Part shown: positions 12,695 to 21,263 of the stretch, piece by piece
Layout: every line of letters starts with the position of its first letter
How positions within the stretch are numbered: position 1 is the stretch's first letter
Assembly: GCA_965200245.1 (NCBI GenBank)
Contig: CBDATS010000004.1
Span: 768,001 to 832,000 of the forward strand
Length of the DNA: 64,000 nt
Direction of reading: 5' to 3'
From: a bacterium
GTDB taxonomy: Bacteria > UBA8248
Translations under genes and position numbers: made by a program
The notes under the pieces: generated by a model
The model's input: only the letters and a program-made list of their open reading frames with translations
The model's database searches: none
What the model was told of the DNA's origin: nothing

Positions 12695-13723
12695 ATGATT
12701 CGCGACGATGTATTCGTCTTCGACAACGTGGTGCACATGTATGACTACTCGGACGAGAACCTCGTCTCCGGGAAAAGCGAATACGATCGCAACTATCACG
12801 TGAGCAAGGTGCTTCGCAGGAGGCGAACCGCGCCGACGGACATCTACGCCGGCTGGGATCCGGTGGAGGGCTTCAAGCGTCGCTGGAACGTGGAGGACAT
12901 GGGACGCCTCGTCTTTGAGGATTCCGGCACCGATATGGCGATGGCCCAGGCCGTGCCCCTGTTCGATCTGTACAAGGACGGCTTTGCGCCCGTGAAGGCG
13001 CAGTACGCCTTCACGCAGGCCTTCCCCGAACGCTGCCTGTTCTGCGGAGCCGTGGACCCCATGTACCCGAGCGTAGCCGCAGCCTGCGAGGAGATGGAAC
13101 GCCAGGTGAAGGAATGGGGGGCGAAATCCATCAAAATCTACAATGCCCACGTGGACGGAAAATCCTGGGCGTGCGACGACCCTGAAATCGCATACCCCCT
13201 TTACGAGAAAGGGCGAGAACTCGGTATCGAGGTGTTCCAGTTCCACAAGGGGAATCCTATCACGAGGGCGAAACTGCGCGACCTGTCCCCGCTCGACATT
13301 GAGGGCGCGGCGCTTGATTTTCCCGATCTGCTCTTCGGCGTTCACCATCTGGCGGTACCCTACTTCGAGGAAGTCGTCTGGATGGCAAATCGTTATGAAA
13401 ACGTCTTTCTCGTGCTCTCGGGCATCGGCCACACACCCATGGTCGCGCCCAGAACCTTCACAGAATGGATGGGCAGGTTGCTGCGCGACGTGGGTTCCGA
13501 AAGAATCCTCTGGGGTTCCGAAATGGCGCTTCTCGGGAACGCGAGGCCCGTCCTCGAGTGGATATGGGAGATGGAAATCCCTGAATCCATGCAGGACGAC
13601 TACGGCTACCCGCAAATCACCGAGTTGGACAAGCGCAACATCCTGGGACTTAACCAGGCGCGCATTTTCGGCGTGGATGTGGAGGCCAAGAAACAGGAAC
13701 TCTGGAACGGAGGCGCGCGATGA
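12695..13723 (+). CDS. Amidohydrolase_2-family TIM-barrel metalloprotein with atypical metal motif
   Basis: DNVVH, QFHKG, VHHL, ILWGSE and KRNILGLNQARIFG pattern; AGGAG RBS. Confidence 0.85.
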   Translation: MIRDDVFVFDNVVHMYDYSDENLVSGKSEYDRNYHVSKVLRRRRTAPTDIYAGWDPVEGFKRRWNVEDMGRLVFEDSGTDMAMAQAVPLFDLYKDGFAPVKAQYAFTQAFPERCLFCGAVDPMYPSVAAACEEMERQVKEWGAKSIKIYNAHVDGKSWACDDPEIAYPLYEKGRELGIEVFQFHKGNPITRAKLRDLSPLDIEGAALDFPDLLFGVHHLAVPYFEEVVWMANRYENVFLVLSGIGHTPMVAPRTFTEWMGRLLRDVGSERILWGSEMALLGNARPVLEWIWEMEIPESMQDDYGYPQITELDKRNILGLNQARIFGVDVEAKKQELWNGGAR

Positions 13724-14058
13724 ACGAGTACGAAGCCCTCGTCACCGATGTCCAAGACATCATCGAGACGCAGATTCACCCGCTGCTCAAGATTCACGGC
13801 GGCGGTATCACGCTCAAGGGCGTGAGCGAGAAGGGCGAGGTCGCGCTTCGCTTCGAGGGTGCGTGCCGGGGCTGCATGCTGAAGAGCGTCACCTACGCCC
13901 TGGGCGTACGTCAAAAGCTCATGCAGCACCCGGGCGTCACGGATGTCTCTGTCGAGGGTGTGCGCCTTTCGGATCACGCCATCAAACGGGTGGAGAAATT
14001 CTACTCCGGCTATTCGTTTTGGGTGGGGGATCCGCTCAAAGACCAGTCATCGTCTTGA
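13720..14058 (+). CDS. NifU/NfuA C-terminal domain protein (Fe-S carrier)
   Basis: IHPLLKIHGGGI...FEGACRGC (CxxC); ATGA overlap with upstream gene. Confidence 0.85.
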   Translation: MNEYEALVTDVQDIIETQIHPLLKIHGGGITLKGVSEKGEVALRFEGACRGCMLKSVTYALGVRQKLMQHPGVTDVSVEGVRLSDHAIKRVEKFYSGYSFWVGDPLKDQSSS

Positions 14059-15365
14059 TCGCCTCGCGCTACCAGACACGAAAAGAACTGCGCCTGTGGT
14101 ACGGATGGGTGATCCTCCTCGCCGTCTTCATCATCATGGCGGTGACCATCGGCATCCGAAACTCCATCGGTGTCTTCTTCAAGGACATCTCCGGCGAATT
14201 CGGCTGGAACCGTGCGCAGACAGCCGCTGCCTTCACGATGGGCATGCTCGGCCAGGCGGTGGTTGCCCCCTTCGCGGGCTGGGTGCTCGAGCGCTTCAAC
14301 ATGCGCTGGGTTATCGGGGCGGGCATTTTCATGAACGGAACGGTGCTCATATTCGGAGCCTGTATCGGCGCGCTATGGCATTTTTACGCCATGTATTTTC
14401 TCCTCTCCGTGGGTTTCGCCTTCACGGCCAATCTGCCGCAGGTACAACTGCTCTCGAACTGGTTCGTCCTGAAACGGGGATTGGCGATGGGCTTCTCGCA
14501 CGCCGCCCAGGGCTTTGCACCCATTCTCAACATCTTTACCCCCCTGCTCATCGCGAGCCTCGGCTGGCGGGGGAGCTATCTCGCGCTGGCGGGACTGACG
14601 CTGCTGATCGTGCTGCCGTTCGCCCTGTTACTGCTGCGCGACCACCCCAGAGAGAAGCGCAGCGCACCCGACGCGCCCTTTCTGACGCCCGAGGAGTTCT
14701 CGCGTGCCCGCGTCAGGGCCGCCGTCATCGTTCCTGCAGGCAGAGAAAGGGAAACCACCTCCCTCTCTTTTTTCTTCACCCGCAGGTTCATGCTGATCGG
14801 AGGCATTTACGGCAGCATCGCGTATACCTTCACCGCTGTTCTGGTGCACCTGGTTCCCCATGCGACGGATCAGGGTTTTTCCCTTTCGGGGGGTGCAGCG
14901 CTCTTCGCCCTCTATGGAGCGTCCCTCGCCGCGGGAAACGCGTTGAGTGCGATTTCGGATCGCATCGGAAGGCTCCCCACCTACATGGTGGGCGTGATAT
15001 GCGGTGTGGCATCCTGTTATCTTCTCGCCTCCTTCACGCGCGAATCGCCCGAGTGGCACATATATGCGAGCACCATGGGAGTGGGTTTCGCTCTCGGTTT
15101 CGTCCGGCCTACGGCGTCCTCCCTCCTGGCCGATCATTTCGCGGGACCGGGCTTCGGCCTAGTGAACGGATGCGCGATGATGGTCTTCTCCCTGGTGGGT
15201 GCCCTAGGTCCCTGGGTAACGGGAATGCTCTTCGACGCGAGCGGGAACTATTTAACAGGTTTTCTCCTGGTGGGCGGCATGTTTGTCGCGGGCGCGATTT
15301 TCGTCCTGAACCTCTCGCGCATACCGCGCGAAGCGCGTAGCCAAGGCGCTGAAAACCATGCATAG
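14055..15365 (+). CDS. MFS transporter
   Basis: WYGW N-terminus, about 12 hydrophobic segments, SNWFVLKRGLAMG and SDRIGR motifs; probable TTG start overlapping the NifU stop (TTGA). Confidence 0.88.
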   Translation: MIASRYQTRKELRLWYGWVILLAVFIIMAVTIGIRNSIGVFFKDISGEFGWNRAQTAAAFTMGMLGQAVVAPFAGWVLERFNMRWVIGAGIFMNGTVLIFGACIGALWHFYAMYFLLSVGFAFTANLPQVQLLSNWFVLKRGLAMGFSHAAQGFAPILNIFTPLLIASLGWRGSYLALAGLTLLIVLPFALLLLRDHPREKRSAPDAPFLTPEEFSRARVRAAVIVPAGRERETTSLSFFFTRRFMLIGGIYGSIAYTFTAVLVHLVPHATDQGFSLSGGAALFALYGASLAAGNALSAISDRIGRLPTYMVGVICGVASCYLLASFTRESPEWHIYASTMGVGFALGFVRPTASSLLADHFAGPGFGLVNGCAMMVFSLVGALGPWVTGMLFDASGNYLTGFLLVGGMFVAGAIFVLNLSRIPREARSQGAENHA

Positions 15366-16617
15366 CGAATCGCGCTTCTGGTACGGCTGGGTGGTGCTGG
15401 CCGTAGTCTATCTCGTCATGATCTCGCTCATCGCCTTTCGCGCCACAATAGGACCCTTCTTCAAGGAAATCTCGGGCGAACTCGGCTGGAGCCGGGGGGC
15501 GACGGCGGCCGCCTTTTCCATCGGGATGCTGGCCCAGGCGGTCATCTCGCCGCTTGCGGGCATTCTCTCCGACCGCTGGAGCATCCGGGCAACGATGTCG
15601 GCGGGCGTCGTGGTGTTCGGCCTCTCCTTGCTTATCGGGAGCCAAATCACATCGCTTTGGCACTTTTACCTGATGTACATCGGCCTTTGTGCGGGTTTCG
15701 CCGCGGGCACGTGGGTCGCCCAGGTGCCCACGCTCTCGAACTGGTTCGTGAAAAAGAGAGGCCTCGCCTTGGGAATCGCCAACACCTGCCAAGGAGGCGC
15801 ATTCTGCCTGAACATCGCTACACCGTACCTCATCGCGGCCCTGGGATGGCGAATGAGCTACCTCGCGCTGGCGGGCGTGGTCCTGCTCTTCGTGCTGCCC
15901 ATCTGCATCGTCTTTCACAGGGACCATCCATCGGACAAGGACACCATCGCCGATGCGCCCTTCGTCCATCACACGCTGGATGAACAACCTCCGGAACCCC
16001 CGCCTACATCATCCGGCACTCCGCAAGTCCCCCTGTTCAACCTGTCGTTTTTCTTTTTCCTGGGTTCTTTCCTGCCTATGGCCTACGCCTTCGCGGGCAT
16101 GCTCGTTCATCTGGTGCCCCACGCCACCGACCAGGGCTTCTCGCTCGAAACCGCGAGTGTCATTTTCGCCATATGGGGGTTCTGCCAAGTGGGAGCGAAC
16201 CTCATAAGCCCGGTCTCGGACAGGCTCGGCAGGACGCCGACGTTCCTGATCGGCGTGGCGCTCGGAATCGCCTCCGCTCTGATTCTCGCCACCTACGAGA
16301 AGGGCGACCCCCAGATGCGCTTCTACCTGGGCGCGATAACCAATGGCGCTGCCCTGGGACTCATGCGGCCAACCGGATCAGCCATCCTGGCAGATTACTT
16401 CGAGGGTCCGGGCTTCGGGCGCGTGAATGGGGTGGCGATGATGGCGTTCGCCCTTTGGGGTTCGGCAGGGCCATGGACCACGGGCTTTCTCTTCGACATG
16501 CACGGCTCCTACCTTTGGGGCCTGTCGGCCTTCGCGTTCATGTTCTTCCTCTCCGGCGTCTTCGTCCTGTTGCTCGGCTGGACGAAAAGAGATAGGAGAG
16601 AGATGTCATCCACCTGA
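15358..16617 (+). CDS. MFS transporter (paralog of upstream MFS)
   Basis: WYGW, SNWFVKKRGLALG, VHLVPHATDQGFSL, SDRLGR; overlaps upstream gene by 8 bp. Confidence 0.9.
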   Translation: MHSESRFWYGWVVLAVVYLVMISLIAFRATIGPFFKEISGELGWSRGATAAAFSIGMLAQAVISPLAGILSDRWSIRATMSAGVVVFGLSLLIGSQITSLWHFYLMYIGLCAGFAAGTWVAQVPTLSNWFVKKRGLALGIANTCQGGAFCLNIATPYLIAALGWRMSYLALAGVVLLFVLPICIVFHRDHPSDKDTIADAPFVHHTLDEQPPEPPPTSSGTPQVPLFNLSFFFFLGSFLPMAYAFAGMLVHLVPHATDQGFSLETASVIFAIWGFCQVGANLISPVSDRLGRTPTFLIGVALGIASALILATYEKGDPQMRFYLGAITNGAALGLMRPTGSAILADYFEGPGFGRVNGVAMMAFALWGSAGPWTTGFLFDMHGSYLWGLSAFAFMFFLSGVFVLLLGWTKRDRREMSST

Positions 16618-16646
16618 AATACAGAAACACGAATTCAGGAGTGAAC

Positions 16647-17567
16647 ATGCCGGTCGAAAAAGTCGATGGATTCTACTTTCACCCCACTTCGCGCGAGCGC
16701 GTCCTGGCGCAGCGCCATGCCAATCCGGCCAGGACGCCGTGGATGCCGATGGAAAAACCACTCGCAGAGTGCAAGGTCACCCTGGTGTCCACTGCCGGTA
16801 TCTTCATGAAGGGCGACGAGTCGTTCGACTACGAGAGAGAACGCCGTGAGGGCACATGGGGAGATCCTACCCACCGGGAAATTCCCAGGACGGCGGGCCA
16901 GGACGATGTACAGTATTCGCACCTGCACGTCGACACCTCGTTCATGGCCGAGGACAGGAACGTATCCTGGCCGGTCGACGTTTTCCTCGAGTTCGAGAGA
17001 GGGGGAAAAATCGGTGCACTCGCCGAAATGCTCTATTCCATCATGGGCTACATCCCGAATTTCAATCCCCTGGTGAAGCACACCGCGCCCTTGATGATCG
17101 AGAAGATGAGAGAAGAGGGTGTGGACGCGGCTTTTCTCTATCCGGTCTGACCTCTGTGCAACCGGTCCGGCGGACTGCTTCAGCGCGAAATCGAAAAGGC
17201 GGGAATCGCCACTGTCATCATCTCCAACGTGCCCGAAACCACCGAACGCGTCTGTGTCCCCAGGGCCGTTTTCGTCCAGTATCCCTTCGGGCGGCTGTTG
17301 GGCGTCGTGGGCGATTACGCAGGCCAGCGCAGGATTTGCGAGGACATGGCCGCGCTGCTCGAAGAAGCGGACGCACCCAACACCTACCGACATCTGCCGT
17401 ATGAGTGGCCCGAATCGCCAGAGACCACCAAATGGCGTCCGGACGTCCCCCCGCCCATCTTCGCCATCCGCCAGGCCAAGGAAGGCGGGTACGAACTGAT
17501 GGATGACTTCAGGGACGAAGAACGCGCCGCGTATTCCGATTCGGGAAGCCAGGCGAGCGCATGCTGA
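16647..17567 (+). CDS. Selenoprotein of the glycine/sarcosine/betaine/proline reductase selenoprotein B (GrdB/PrdB-like) family; Sec at TGA 17148-17150
   Basis: ORFs 16641..17150 and 17229..17567 share a frame; read-through gives VDAAFLYPV-U-PLCNRSGGLLQREIEKAGIATV (UxxC); family motifs KPLAECKVTLVSTAG, GDPTHREIP, MGYIP, VPRA..PFGR; AGGAG RBS before ATG 16647. Confidence 0.88.
17160..17180 (+). promoter_or_regulatory. Putative bacterial SECIS hairpin
   Basis: AAC-CGGTC-[CGGCG]-GACTG-CTT stem-loop starting 10 nt after the in-frame UGA, with G in the apical loop. Confidence 0.65.
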
Positions 17568-17589
17568 CTTCTGCGCACCGCCTGCAAGA

Positions 17590-18999
17590 CTACGCCTTCT
17601 CCAACCTAGCGAAATCGAGGTAAAACCGTCCGTCCACCTCAGATCGCAACAGCGTCTGCGTGAAATCTTTCGATTCTATCCGGTAGATCCGCTCTTCACC
17701 TCTTCCTTTCGAGACGTTCGTGAGTGTCTCTCCATCAAGGCCGCCGGGCACTCTCTTCCCCGTCAGGGAGAGTATGGTGGGGGCCAGGTCTGTATTTCCC
17801 GTCGGTGCGTCTACCCGCGCGCCCGCCTGAAATTCGGGGCCTTTCGCAATCAGGAAATTGCGAAGTTCATAGGGACTGCAAGAACCGTGCGTTCCGCCGC
17901 ATCCCTTGTTGTTGACAGAGGAATATCCCCAACCGGGGAGCGCACCCTCACGGTTCCCGTCCTCCGGGAAACCATCGCCCCACTGAAAGCCCATAAGCAA
18001 ATCGGGCGCGCGAGGTCCGCCACAGCCGACCAGGCCCAGGGGCATCACGCCCGGCAAGGCTCCCCGGGCGCCTTCTCCATCTTTCGAGAACAATGGCCCC
18101 GCCCATTCTTTCGTCCGTAGAAACGCAGCGATCTCCAGAAGCGCTTTTTCCGATTTGGCATAGAAAAGGGCGGCCCCCTCGCTGTGCGCCGCCTGCCAGA
18201 TATTCCCTCGGCCGGAGATGTCCGCCAGTTCCGCATCCAGGTCGATCATACTTGTCGTCGCAACGACCCCATGATCCGAGAACAGGAGAAGGTTTGTTTC
18301 TGACCAATCGTCTCGCTGCGCCTGAAACTTCTCCCAGAACGCGCCGAACAGACTATCCACTCCATGAAGTGCCTGGTGATGCACGGTACCCGCGGTGCCC
18401 CGGTGATGCTGCGTGCTGTCCGGCTCGCTCAGATGAATGACGAGCACCGCGGGTTCCAGTTCGGGAACCACGTAATCGAGCGCCAGGTCGAGCGCCCATG
18501 CGCAGCGCGGAAGGTCCGGTTCGGCACCGGAGGGGACTGTTCCGGCCTCCTCTATCGTGTCCCGCCCCTCGGCGGGATACGCCGCAACGGGATGAATCAA
18601 GTGCGCGGCGTGACCTGCGTTCCAGAGCCACGCGGAACCACTCGACGCGGTGCTGATGATCACGCCGCCGCCCACGCGCTCGAAAAAGGTATCCCGCAAC
18701 AGCAGGCGCCCGCCCATGGCGCGCTCCCAGGCGAGGAGGTTCTCGTGCCGACCCGTCGTGATGGTTCGGCCCAACTCGCGCGAGAAGAGCGAATTGCCCG
18801 GAAGACCATGCTTTTCAGGGTAGACGCCTGTGGCAAGGCTTGAGACGCAAACTCTCGTAGAGGTGGGAAACGTGCTGCGGTGATTCTGAAACCATGTGCC
18901 GCGCTCCGCCACCGCCATCAGGTTCGGCGCGCTCTGTTCGCTCAGGGCATCGGCGCGCAGGCCATCGAACTGAATCGCTATCACACGAGGCGAGGCCAT
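17590..18999 (-). CDS. Alkaline phosphatase superfamily / nucleotide pyrophosphatase-phosphodiesterase
   Basis: FDGLR, FPTST (Thr nucleophile), EPDSTQH, SDHG, GTHGS motifs. Confidence 0.88.
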   Translation of the reverse strand: MASPRVIAIQFDGLRADALSEQSAPNLMAVAERGTWFQNHRSTFPTSTRVCVSSLATGVYPEKHGLPGNSLFSRELGRTITTGRHENLLAWERAMGGRLLLRDTFFERVGGGVIISTASSGSAWLWNAGHAAHLIHPVAAYPAEGRDTIEEAGTVPSGAEPDLPRCAWALDLALDYVVPELEPAVLVIHLSEPDSTQHHRGTAGTVHHQALHGVDSLFGAFWEKFQAQRDDWSETNLLLFSDHGVVATTSMIDLDAELADISGRGNIWQAAHSEGAALFYAKSEKALLEIAAFLRTKEWAGPLFSKDGEGARGALPGVMPLGLVGCGGPRAPDLLMGFQWGDGFPEDGNREGALPGWGYSSVNNKGCGGTHGSCSPYELRNFLIAKGPEFQAGARVDAPTGNTDLAPTILSLTGKRVPGGLDGETLTNVSKGRGEERIYRIESKDFTQTLLRSEVDGRFYLDFARLEKA

Positions 19000-20240: not shown

Positions 20241-21263
20241 CTATATCTCAAGCCCGTAAATTCGCCTTGCATTGGTGGTGAGGATCATTTCCTGTTCCGC
20301 TTCCGAGAGGCGGTTCAGGCCCGGAATATCCCGCGCGGGCTGGTGGCAGCCCATGTCCGCCGGATAGTCCGTGCCGTAGAGAATCCGCTCCGCACCCAGC
20401 GCCTTCGCCGCAAATTCAAGGCAATCCGCGTTGTGGATGATGGTGTCATAGTAGAAACGGCCGAAATACTGCTCCGGGTCTTTCGCCCCGTGTATTTTTG
20501 GCTCCCTGCGCTCGGCGTAGCCATGCTGCCAGCGGCCTCGAATCCAGGGCGTGAAGCCGCCCAGGTGGGAGAGATAGAACCGAAGCCCCGGAAACCTGTC
20601 TATCACGCCGCCGAATATCAAGCACGCCACCGCAACCGTGGTGTCGAGCGGATTGCCAATGAAGTTCCTCAGGTAGAAATCCCTGAGCCGATCGTCTGAA
20701 CCCAGCACGTTCGTGGGATGCACGAACACGGGCATGTCGAGGACCTGGGCCTTTGCCCAGAATACGTCCAGACCCGGATCGTCCAGGTTCTTTCCCGCCA
20801 CGTTCGAGGCGATCATGACGCCAATGTGGCCGTTCGCCTTCGCGCGCTGGAGTTCCGCCGCAGCGGCCTCGGGCAACTGGAGGGGAACGGTGGCCATGCA
20901 CGAAAATTTGTCGGGATACTCGATGGTCAGGGCCGTCAGACCGTCGTTCAGCGAGGCGGACAGTTCCCTGTTCGCTTCGGCCTCGAGCGTATAGAGCGTC
21001 ATGGCGGGACCGATGGAGAGCACCTGATGCGCAACACCCATCCGTTCCATGTCGGTGAAGCGCGGTGCGAGTTCATAGTAAAGGGGCGTGAGCCTGTTCC
21101 TGAGTTCCGACTCGCGCCCCAACACCTTTCCTCGCGTGACAAGCCACTCGCCCTGCTCGTCAGCCTCGATCGACGCCGTGCGGCCAAAGCGGCCCGCGCG
21201 CACATCCGCAATGAACTGCCCCGGATAGATATGGGTGTGGGGATCGATAGCCGCCATCTTCAT
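20241..21263 (-). CDS. Amidohydrolase_2 family, ACMSD-like decarboxylase/hydrolase
   Basis: IDPHTH, PVFVHP, HLGGFTP, LYGTDYP. Confidence 0.88.
   Translation of the reverse strand: MKMAAIDPHTHIYPGQFIADVRAGRFGRTASIEADEQGEWLVTRGKVLGRESELRNRLTPLYYELAPRFTDMERMGVAHQVLSIGPAMTLYTLEAEANRELSASLNDGLTALTIEYPDKFSCMATVPLQLPEAAAAELQRAKANGHIGVMIASNVAGKNLDDPGLDVFWAKAQVLDMPVFVHPTNVLGSDDRLRDFYLRNFIGNPLDTTVAVACLIFGGVIDRFPGLRFYLSHLGGFTPWIRGRWQHGYAERREPKIHGAKDPEQYFGRFYYDTIIHNADCLEFAAKALGAERILYGTDYPADMGCHQPARDIPGLNRLSEAEQEMILTTNARRIYGLEI

Follow-up and report, generated by a model that had tools for sequence, protein, structure and literature searches.

Does the in-frame TGA at position 17148 of this stretch of bacterial DNA end a protein, or does it specify selenocysteine (Sec) inside one? 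The stretch, hereafter the window, comprises 64,000 nucleotides (nt) of contig CBDATS010000004.1 (assembly GCA_965200245.1, GTDB lineage UBA8248), and the gene in question occupies positions 16647-17567 of its plus strand. Our analysis indicates with high confidence that these positions hold one functional gene, in which UGA 17148-17150 is read as Sec168 and whose product is a PrdB-like selenoprotein. In silico, this reading draws on the continuity of the gene, the conservation of the TGA, selection past it, cysteine (Cys) at the same position in homologues, the Sec machinery of the genome and a conserved hairpin; the chemistry and the substrate that we propose are much less certain.

A single frame runs from the ATG at 16647 to the stop TGA at 17565-17567, and its sole interruption is the TGA at 17148-17150, which is codon 168 and lies inside the motif YPV-U-PLC. 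Past this codon, the frame is open for 138 further codons, and the product with the TGA read as Sec has 306 residues. Translation with table 11 splits the gene into two open reading frames (ORFs), 16641..17150 (169 aa) and 17229..17567 (112 aa). The original prediction, made from the letters of the DNA, had described this split, placed the TGA in PV-U-PLC and proposed a protein of about 306 aa with family-like sequence past the TGA; all these statements hold, and the NCBIfam model of PrdB, TIGR04483, spans residues 31-254 and crosses the TGA. The features of the gene are as follows.

16637 to 16641, plus strand: Shine-Dalgarno-like AGGAG, 5 nt 5' of the ATG, as read from the sequence
16647 to 17567, plus strand: complete coding sequence of the PrdB-like selenoprotein, 306 aa and stop, based on translation, PF07355, TIGR04483, orthologues and the dN/dS ratio
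17148 to 17150, plus strand: UGA codon 168, Sec, the U of U-P-L-C, based on TGA in orthologues and homologues and on alignment to the genome's own GrdB-type gene
17157 to 17159, plus strand: TGC codon for Cys171, the presumed resolving Cys of the UxxC pair, invariant in a 15-sequence alignment

Taken at face value, the two ORFs would be two genes, one for an N-terminal protein of 167-169 aa that ends at the UGA and another that starts at GTG 17229, and public annotation sides with this division. Among 55 matches in public predicted-protein sets, 49 are stubs such as the 168-aa form (168-204 aa, covering 43-54% of the query), and the three stub proteins that were fetched all terminate in ...FPV, exactly at the TGA. 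The stretch that separates the two ORFs argues against this division: over the 26 codons from the TGA to GTG 17229, the amino acid is invariant at 22 positions among 19 orthologues, with synonymous variation present. Moreover, homologues with Cys are single uninterrupted proteins, and the PrdB model passes through the TGA without a break. A pair of genes is therefore extremely improbable, and ordinary gene callers cut a real 306-residue Sec enzyme gene in two at the UGA. The corrected annotation consists of one 306-aa selenoprotein instead of a 168-aa stub and an orphan ORF; most public copies are affected by the same mistake. One database protein, P0015 (302 aa, 97% coverage), was considered as a full-length homologue and rejected, being out of frame after about residue 115; it is excluded from the count of Cys homologues given below and exemplifies a gene caller that bridges the TGA via a frameshifted path.

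The single-gene reading predicts that the sequence past the TGA evolves as coding sequence, and this is what the orthologues display. In a six-frame search of 41 related genomes, 22 of these from the same genus, an intact orthologue was found in 18 of the 22 same-genus genomes, with 82-90% identity over residues 1 to ~300 and one in-frame TGA each. When these 18 coding sequences were compared together with the window gene, the TGA was the first in-frame stop in 19 of 19, the second stop following 133-139 codons on. At the amino-acid level, the orthologues are 86-93% identical to the window protein in the part that follows the TGA and 83-92% in the part that precedes it; the median Nei-Gojobori ratio of nonsynonymous to synonymous substitution rates (dN/dS) over 171 pairs is 0.117 after the TGA compared to 0.082 before it; and the variable sites past the TGA are distributed over codon positions 1, 2 and 3 as 42, 25 and 97. 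The low dN/dS together with the excess of third-position changes implies that the 3' part is translated in frame and is subject to purifying selection, which is as strong past the TGA as it is upstream.

The same data bear on the possibility that the locus is a pseudogene, that is, a Cys-type gene in which a nonsense change of TGC or TGT to TGA has left only a 167-aa fragment or nothing useful. The TGA is indeed one step from either Cys codon, Cys forms occur at 4 of the 80 related loci described below, and the orthologue is frameshifted in three same-genus genomes. However, a dead 3' half would drift, contrary to the observed dN/dS and the dominance of third-position variation, and the same TGA recurs in 18 same-genus genomes and at 75 of the 80 loci, across three phylum-level groups. 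We attach hardly any weight to this explanation.

In a wider set of relatives, the Sec column is occupied by TGA or by a Cys codon. A scan with one genome per species yielded 206 relatives, 80 of which were kept for the column count; by their record titles, the close ones are Nitrospinota/Nitrospinaceae and the distant ones are Thermodesulfobacteriota, Desulfo-, Syntrophales and Dehalococcoidia/Chloroflexota. The codon is TGA at 75 of these loci and TGC or TGT at 4 (L115, L116, L117, L125), and the remaining locus (L111) is frameshifted; nine loci that the motif pattern missed were read by eye, eight of them as TGA (U-PECC type) and one as the frameshifted case. All five uninterrupted database homologues (P0016-P0019, P0054) have Cys at this column. 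In the 15-sequence alignment, no sequence departs from C168 (written in place of U), P169 and C171, and U168 matches the Sec of the GrdB-type gene of this genome in a gap-free alignment. The codon had been predicted to fall at the catalytic position of the family; it does align with the family's Sec column, and its catalytic role would follow from this alignment.

The family is represented more than once in this genome. Two more PrdB-like paralogues lie outside the window (G000:C8:244903-245778 and G000:C4:1532184-1532870; L044 and L045); they are 64% and 41% identical to the window protein and have an in-frame TGA at the same column, in PV-U-PLCMRS and PA-U-GLCNRS, respectively. Most same-genus genomes contain three or four PrdB-like matches. 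In the Chloroflexota/Dehalococcoidia homologues L131, L133, L135, L137, L141-L143 and L145, the motif is PV-U-PECCRN.

The genome encodes the Sec machinery in full, with selD (338.6 bits), selA (572.7), selB (391.9) and tRNA-Sec (75.9) all scoring above the curated cut-offs. The Sec decoding put forward in the original prediction is supported by this machinery, by homologues with TGA or Cys at the column and by a conserved stem-loop 3' of the TGA, to which we return below. The selD gene, located outside the window (G000:C8:72779-73741), contains an in-frame TGA of its own, so that selenophosphate synthetase is also a selenoprotein here. On another contig, a grdA - grdE - GrdB-type cluster (G000:C5:575430-578650; L046, L064, L065) has two Sec codons; its grdA (PF04723, 192 bits) contains one TGA, and its 442-aa GrdB-type gene reads ...LPAT-U-GTGTRSG, without a Cys at +3 after Sec, unlike the UxxC of the window protein.

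Because the inserted residue is read here from sequence alone, the UGA could in principle be read through without Sec-tRNA, either by near-cognate insertion of Cys or Trp or under a reassigned code. The code is not reassigned, because TGA closes both the gene itself and other ORFs of the window. The complete sel machinery, the conserved hairpin and the alternation of TGA with Cys only among homologues all argue for Sec, and we see next to no likelihood of non-Sec readthrough.

According to PMC1088965, a bacterial Sec insertion sequence (SECIS) element is a stem-loop that immediately follows the UGA and has a G in its small apical loop. A candidate structure of this kind follows the TGA.

17157 to 17182, plus strand: SECIS-like hairpin with comparative support; upper stem 17163-17168/17172-17177, loop GGC at 17169-17171

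Its lower pairs are U17157-A17182, G17158-C17181, A17160-U17180 and A17161-U17179, and a C-C mismatch separates the lower from the upper stem. A hairpin had been predicted to begin 10 nt downstream of the TGA; the hairpin is present but the distance is not exact, given that the 6-bp upper stem begins 13 nt past the last TGA base and the invariant lower pairs begin at 17157, 7 nt past it. Codons +5 to +9 after the TGA (17163-17177; Arg, Ser, Gly, Gly, Leu), which form the core of the hairpin, are invariant at all 15 nt in 19 of 19 orthologues, although they belong to 4- and 6-fold codon families. This is the sole run of five invariant codons among the 79 comparable codons, 15 of which are invariant, and a run of five was reached in 167 of 20,000 shuffles. 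In 33 distinct sequences, paralogues included, the pairs of the hairpin form in 79% of cells compared to 22-55% in slid controls, a difference that is favoured by construction because the hairpin was named by hand from the same sequences. Four of its pairs are changed on both sides among the 33 sequences, which one of 500 shuffles attained, and the first loop base is G in 35 of 35 sequences.

More distant homologues have comparable elements. Desulfo-type homologues have the same hairpin in a longer and stronger form, and in this clade all six stem pairs are kept in 19 of 22 TGA genes compared to none of the four Cys genes, three of which are close relatives of one another. In eight Chloroflexota genes, the hairpin equally far from the TGA is of a different kind (7 bp, ACG[CU]GCC / GGC[GA]CGU, with a 6-nt loop), and in L137 it shows a compensatory change from C-G to U-A.

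The small number of Cys genes in this contrast is one of several points that weigh against reading the locus as a functional Sec gene. The fold of the 91-nt region is no better than chance (z = +1.26 relative to shuffles); 23% of the 1956 TGA sites in the window fold equally well over the same 27 nt; and a comparable 6-bp hairpin with G as the first loop base is found at 67 of these sites (3.4%). RNAalifold did not predict the hairpin from the 35-sequence alignment, its output being only a 4-bp invariant GACC/GGUC helix that includes the UGA and is without covariation. A scan of 16900-17400 on both strands against Rfam, with E up to 10, yielded no match; to our knowledge, Rfam contains no curated bacterial SECIS model, so that this null result says little. 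The support for the hairpin rests on conservation rather than on stability, and the hairpin, when taken alone, is weak evidence. Furthermore, the gene may be dispensable, because the orthologue is in frameshifted pieces in 3 of the 22 same-genus genomes (G004, G008, G022) and was not found by the six-frame search in one more (G017, 79% complete). The neighbourhood of paralogues and distant homologues varies, the gene row described below not being kept, and the NCBIfam scores of the protein are far under the PrdB and GrdB cut-offs, so that function is read from family likeness only.

What, then, is the protein? The original prediction called it GrdB/PrdB-like, and it is PrdB-like, but it is not PrdB or GrdB proper, scoring under both cut-offs. 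TIGR04483 aligns residues 31-254 with positions 19-234 of its 238 (E 2.5e-35), at 122 bits, below the PrdB cut-off of 300. The Pfam GRDB family, PF07355, matches residues 33-164 with profile positions 217-344 of 347 (35 bits with a cut-off of 22; E 1.3e-8), and the match ends four residues before the TGA, three positions short of the end of the profile. The NCBIfam models of GrdB, GrdF and GrdH align residues ~37 to 215, scoring 47-57 bits against cut-offs of 65-800; for TIGR01917 and TIGR01918, the scores are 46.8 bits against 602 and 50.5 bits against 65.45, over profile positions ~220 to 384 only. In U168-P-L-C171, Sec occupies the conserved position of the family, and Cys follows at +3 (UxxC). 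The window protein has ~30 extra N-terminal and ~50 extra C-terminal residues, and the N-terminal half of GrdB is missing from it. It is a member of the GrdB/PrdB superfamily whose nearest relative there is PrdB, but which is distinct from both PrdB and GrdB.

A true D-proline reductase PrdB, or a GrdB-type subunit, whose PrdA or GrdE partner is encoded elsewhere in the genome would be compatible with PrdB being the best NCBIfam model, matched over nearly its whole length, and with the presence of one gene of the PrdA/GrdE family (PF09338) in the genome. That single PF09338 gene, however, lies on contig C5 (G000:C5:575430-577068) beside grdA (PF04723) and a GrdB-type gene of its own, grdA and grdE being found only there and not adjoining the window gene. 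PF09338 had no match in 13 ORFs surrounding the gene in the window or in 50 neighbouring ORFs of 13 homologous loci (14 loci had been picked for ORF listing, and the ORFs of 13 were scanned against Pfam). The low score and the N- and C-terminal extensions also argue against a genuine PrdB, which we regard as distinctly improbable. Because no PrdA/GrdE partner gene stands beside it, the gene is not that of proline or glycine reductase itself.

Structural comparison offered no lead. A sequence search of the PDB gave no matches at E up to 1. The AlphaFold2 model, built from an 11-sequence alignment, has a mean predicted local distance difference test (pLDDT) score of 65.6 and a predicted template-modelling score of 0.72, with the tail (residues 257-306) below a pLDDT of 50. 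When this model was compared to the PDB with Foldseek, there was no match at E <= 0.001 (the best had E 5.7e-3 and a template-modelling score of 0.23). In a wide VIA-align search, the top Z was 8.7, with LacI-type sugar-binding and short-chain dehydrogenase/reductase or Rossmann-type chains aligned over 141-158 residues at root-mean-square deviations of 3.1-4.3; this is the background level of the tool, and the predicted model shows only a generic alpha/beta layered fold, without a functional lead.

As for the genomic context, in the same genus the selenoprotein gene closes a conserved row of genes on one strand, in which it is preceded by an Amidohydrolase_2 gene and two major facilitator superfamily (MFS) transporter genes. 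In the window, the neighbouring genes are as follows.

11564, plus strand: hypothetical gene, first in the same-strand row
12695 to 13723, plus strand: Amidohydrolase_2 gene (PF04909, E 1.2e-26); 91-95% identical and upstream in the same orientation at 14 of 14 loci (L066-L079)
14103 to 15365, plus strand: MFS transporter 1, start approximate; PF07690 over residues 328-599 of ORF 13143..15365
15358 to 16617, plus strand: MFS transporter 2 (PF07690, E 6.9e-45), directly upstream of the selenoprotein gene with a 29-nt gap
Downstream of the selenoprotein gene, convergent: phosphodiesterase/sulfatase-fold gene

At each of the 18 same-genus loci L025-L042, MFS 2 lies immediately 5' of the selenoprotein gene. 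Of the 14 orthologous loci with 5-kb flanks (L066-L079), 12 contain the whole row and the remaining two are without MFS 1, which is a tandem paralogue of MFS 2 (46-49% identical); the two coding regions overlap by 8 nt (15358-15365). Among the NCBIfam models, MFS 2 scores highest with that of the L-lactate MFS transporter (110 bits, under the cut-off of 320), and the best likenesses of both transporters, likewise sub-threshold, are to lactate and oxalate/formate (monocarboxylate) carriers.

Several further observations concern this neighbourhood. ORF 13143..15365 extends too far upstream, into the amidohydrolase gene, the true start of MFS 1 being near 14103. The amidohydrolase at 12695-13723 is more conserved among same-genus relatives than its neighbours (91-95% compared to 73-89%), and a second Amidohydrolase_2 gene (PF04909) is found at 20241-21263 on the minus strand, so that the two flank the locus. 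Further upstream are a gene resembling the 20-kDa subunit of NADH-quinone oxidoreductase (PF01058, 8595-9311, minus strand) and one resembling pyridoxal phosphate-dependent decarboxylases (PF00282, 9749-10879, plus strand). At L109 (2100-5000) and L111, from the same-genus genomes G022 and G008 in which the orthologue is frameshifted, MFS 2 and the selenoprotein gene are separated by ~2.9 kb, with three opposite-strand genes of the glyoxalase/extradiol-dioxygenase superfamily, of a polysaccharide-deacetylase-like type and of the CMD family; the frameshifts at these loci are either real or long-read assembly errors.

There is a hint, and no more than that, that the locus is transcribed. Metatranscriptome contigs from four runs of one study match 16184-16429, 16468-16787 and 17236-17651 with zero mismatches; the contig 16468-16787, which crosses the junction of MFS 2 and the selenoprotein gene, was obtained in all four runs, and 17236-17651, located 3' of the TGA, in three of the four. 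The depth is 2-4, the TGA is bridged by none of the contigs, and DNA carry-over is possible.

From this evidence we infer a mechanism that takes in Sec insertion, SelB binding, redox chemistry and a substrate; the Sec decoding and the PrdB/GrdB redox chemistry on which it is modelled are summarised in PMC13188914. The mRNA hairpin 17157-17182, with its core at 17163-17177 and its three-base loop that begins with G, would bind SelB carrying Sec-tRNA(Sec), and SelB would bring Sec to the ribosome, competing there with release factor 2. In the protein, Sec168 and Cys171 would form a redox pair, the selenolate acting as the nucleophile and the thiol as the resolving group, and the selenenyl-sulfide thus formed would be re-reduced by a cellular dithiol. 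The analogy with PrdB and GrdB makes it most likely that the protein performs, or contributes to, reductive cleavage at the carbon next to a carboxylate. The row of transporters and amidohydrolase, in turn, suggests that the substrate is an imported small organic acid, that is, a carboxylate.

A broader proposal can be made for the clade of ~300-aa PrdB-like proteins, which in this Nitrospinota-labelled genus is represented by two to three Sec copies per genome and is also found in Thermodesulfobacteriota and Dehalococcoidia. Conceivably, although we consider it rather unlikely, this clade is a stand-alone Sec reductase without a pyruvoyl partner, which here would perform the terminal step of a pathway of small-carboxylate import and reductive cleavage encoded by the conserved row of Amidohydrolase_2, MFS, MFS and selenoprotein genes. 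Some neighbours of its members hint, weakly, at a link to ring cleavage and the catabolism of aromatic acids: an MDMPI_N/DinB-like gene directly upstream of the 64% paralogue at two loci (L088, L108), Amidohydrolase_2 directly upstream at two Chloroflexota loci (L133, L137), an FAA hydrolase neighbour at one homologous locus, and the genes of the extradiol-dioxygenase type and of the CMD family. If true, this link would be new chemistry for the GrdB/PrdB superfamily. Of the PrdB-like selenoproteins, only clostridial proline reductase has a known role, and the conserved transporter/amidohydrolase operon provides a testable handle on the substrate.

The family as such is already known; what is new is the rescued gene of a partner-less PrdB-like branch. 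PrdB with UxxC is an established selenoprotein family (PMC2398784, Table 2; PMC13188914), with 235 Sec and 110 Cys forms in the Global Ocean Sampling (GOS) data (PMC2398784, Table 2) and 42 Sec forms in the Sargasso Sea survey (PMC1088965, Table 1), and a PrdB selenoprotein is also noted in Deltaproteobacteria (PMC1794560, Table 3). PrdB-like selenoproteins are given in PMC2398784 as being among the most abundant in marine metagenomes. The combined wording 'PrdB-like' and 'selenoprotein' was not found in a search of papers, in which the family is printed as 'proline reductase PrdB'. Table 2 of a 2026 database paper (PMC13326102) places NCBI-labelled Nitrospinota metagenome-assembled genomes, which have 48-54 selenoprotein genes, in the ten bacteria richest in selenoproteins, and the window gene is a further, well-supported entry in the selenoproteome of a lineage with such relatives.

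Compared to PrdB of the Clostridium sticklandii / C. difficile type (TIGR04483), the window protein resembles it in matching nearly the whole profile of this best curated model, in the U-x-x-C motif common to both, and in its small size and single domain, the N-terminal half of GrdB being absent. It differs in being ~65 residues longer (30 of them N-terminal, with a low-confidence tail at 257-306) and in the partners of its gene, which are MFS transporters and an amidohydrolase rather than prdACDE, with no prdA (PF09338) nearby. With GrdB, GrdF and GrdH (PF07355, TIGR01917/TIGR01918), it has in common a PF07355 score above the gathering threshold, coincident Sec columns and the conserved block after Sec (RSG..L...E..GI.TV), but it matches only the C-terminal part of these ~430-aa proteins, and its gene is not beside grdA or grdE. 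A further parallel, by description rather than by sequence, is with the marine 'proline reductase PrdB' of the Sargasso Sea and GOS surveys, which belongs to the same Pfam family and has the UxxC motif; in both cases, Sec forms are more numerous than Cys forms (75 compared to 4 in our count), and the marine genes were likewise missed by standard annotation.

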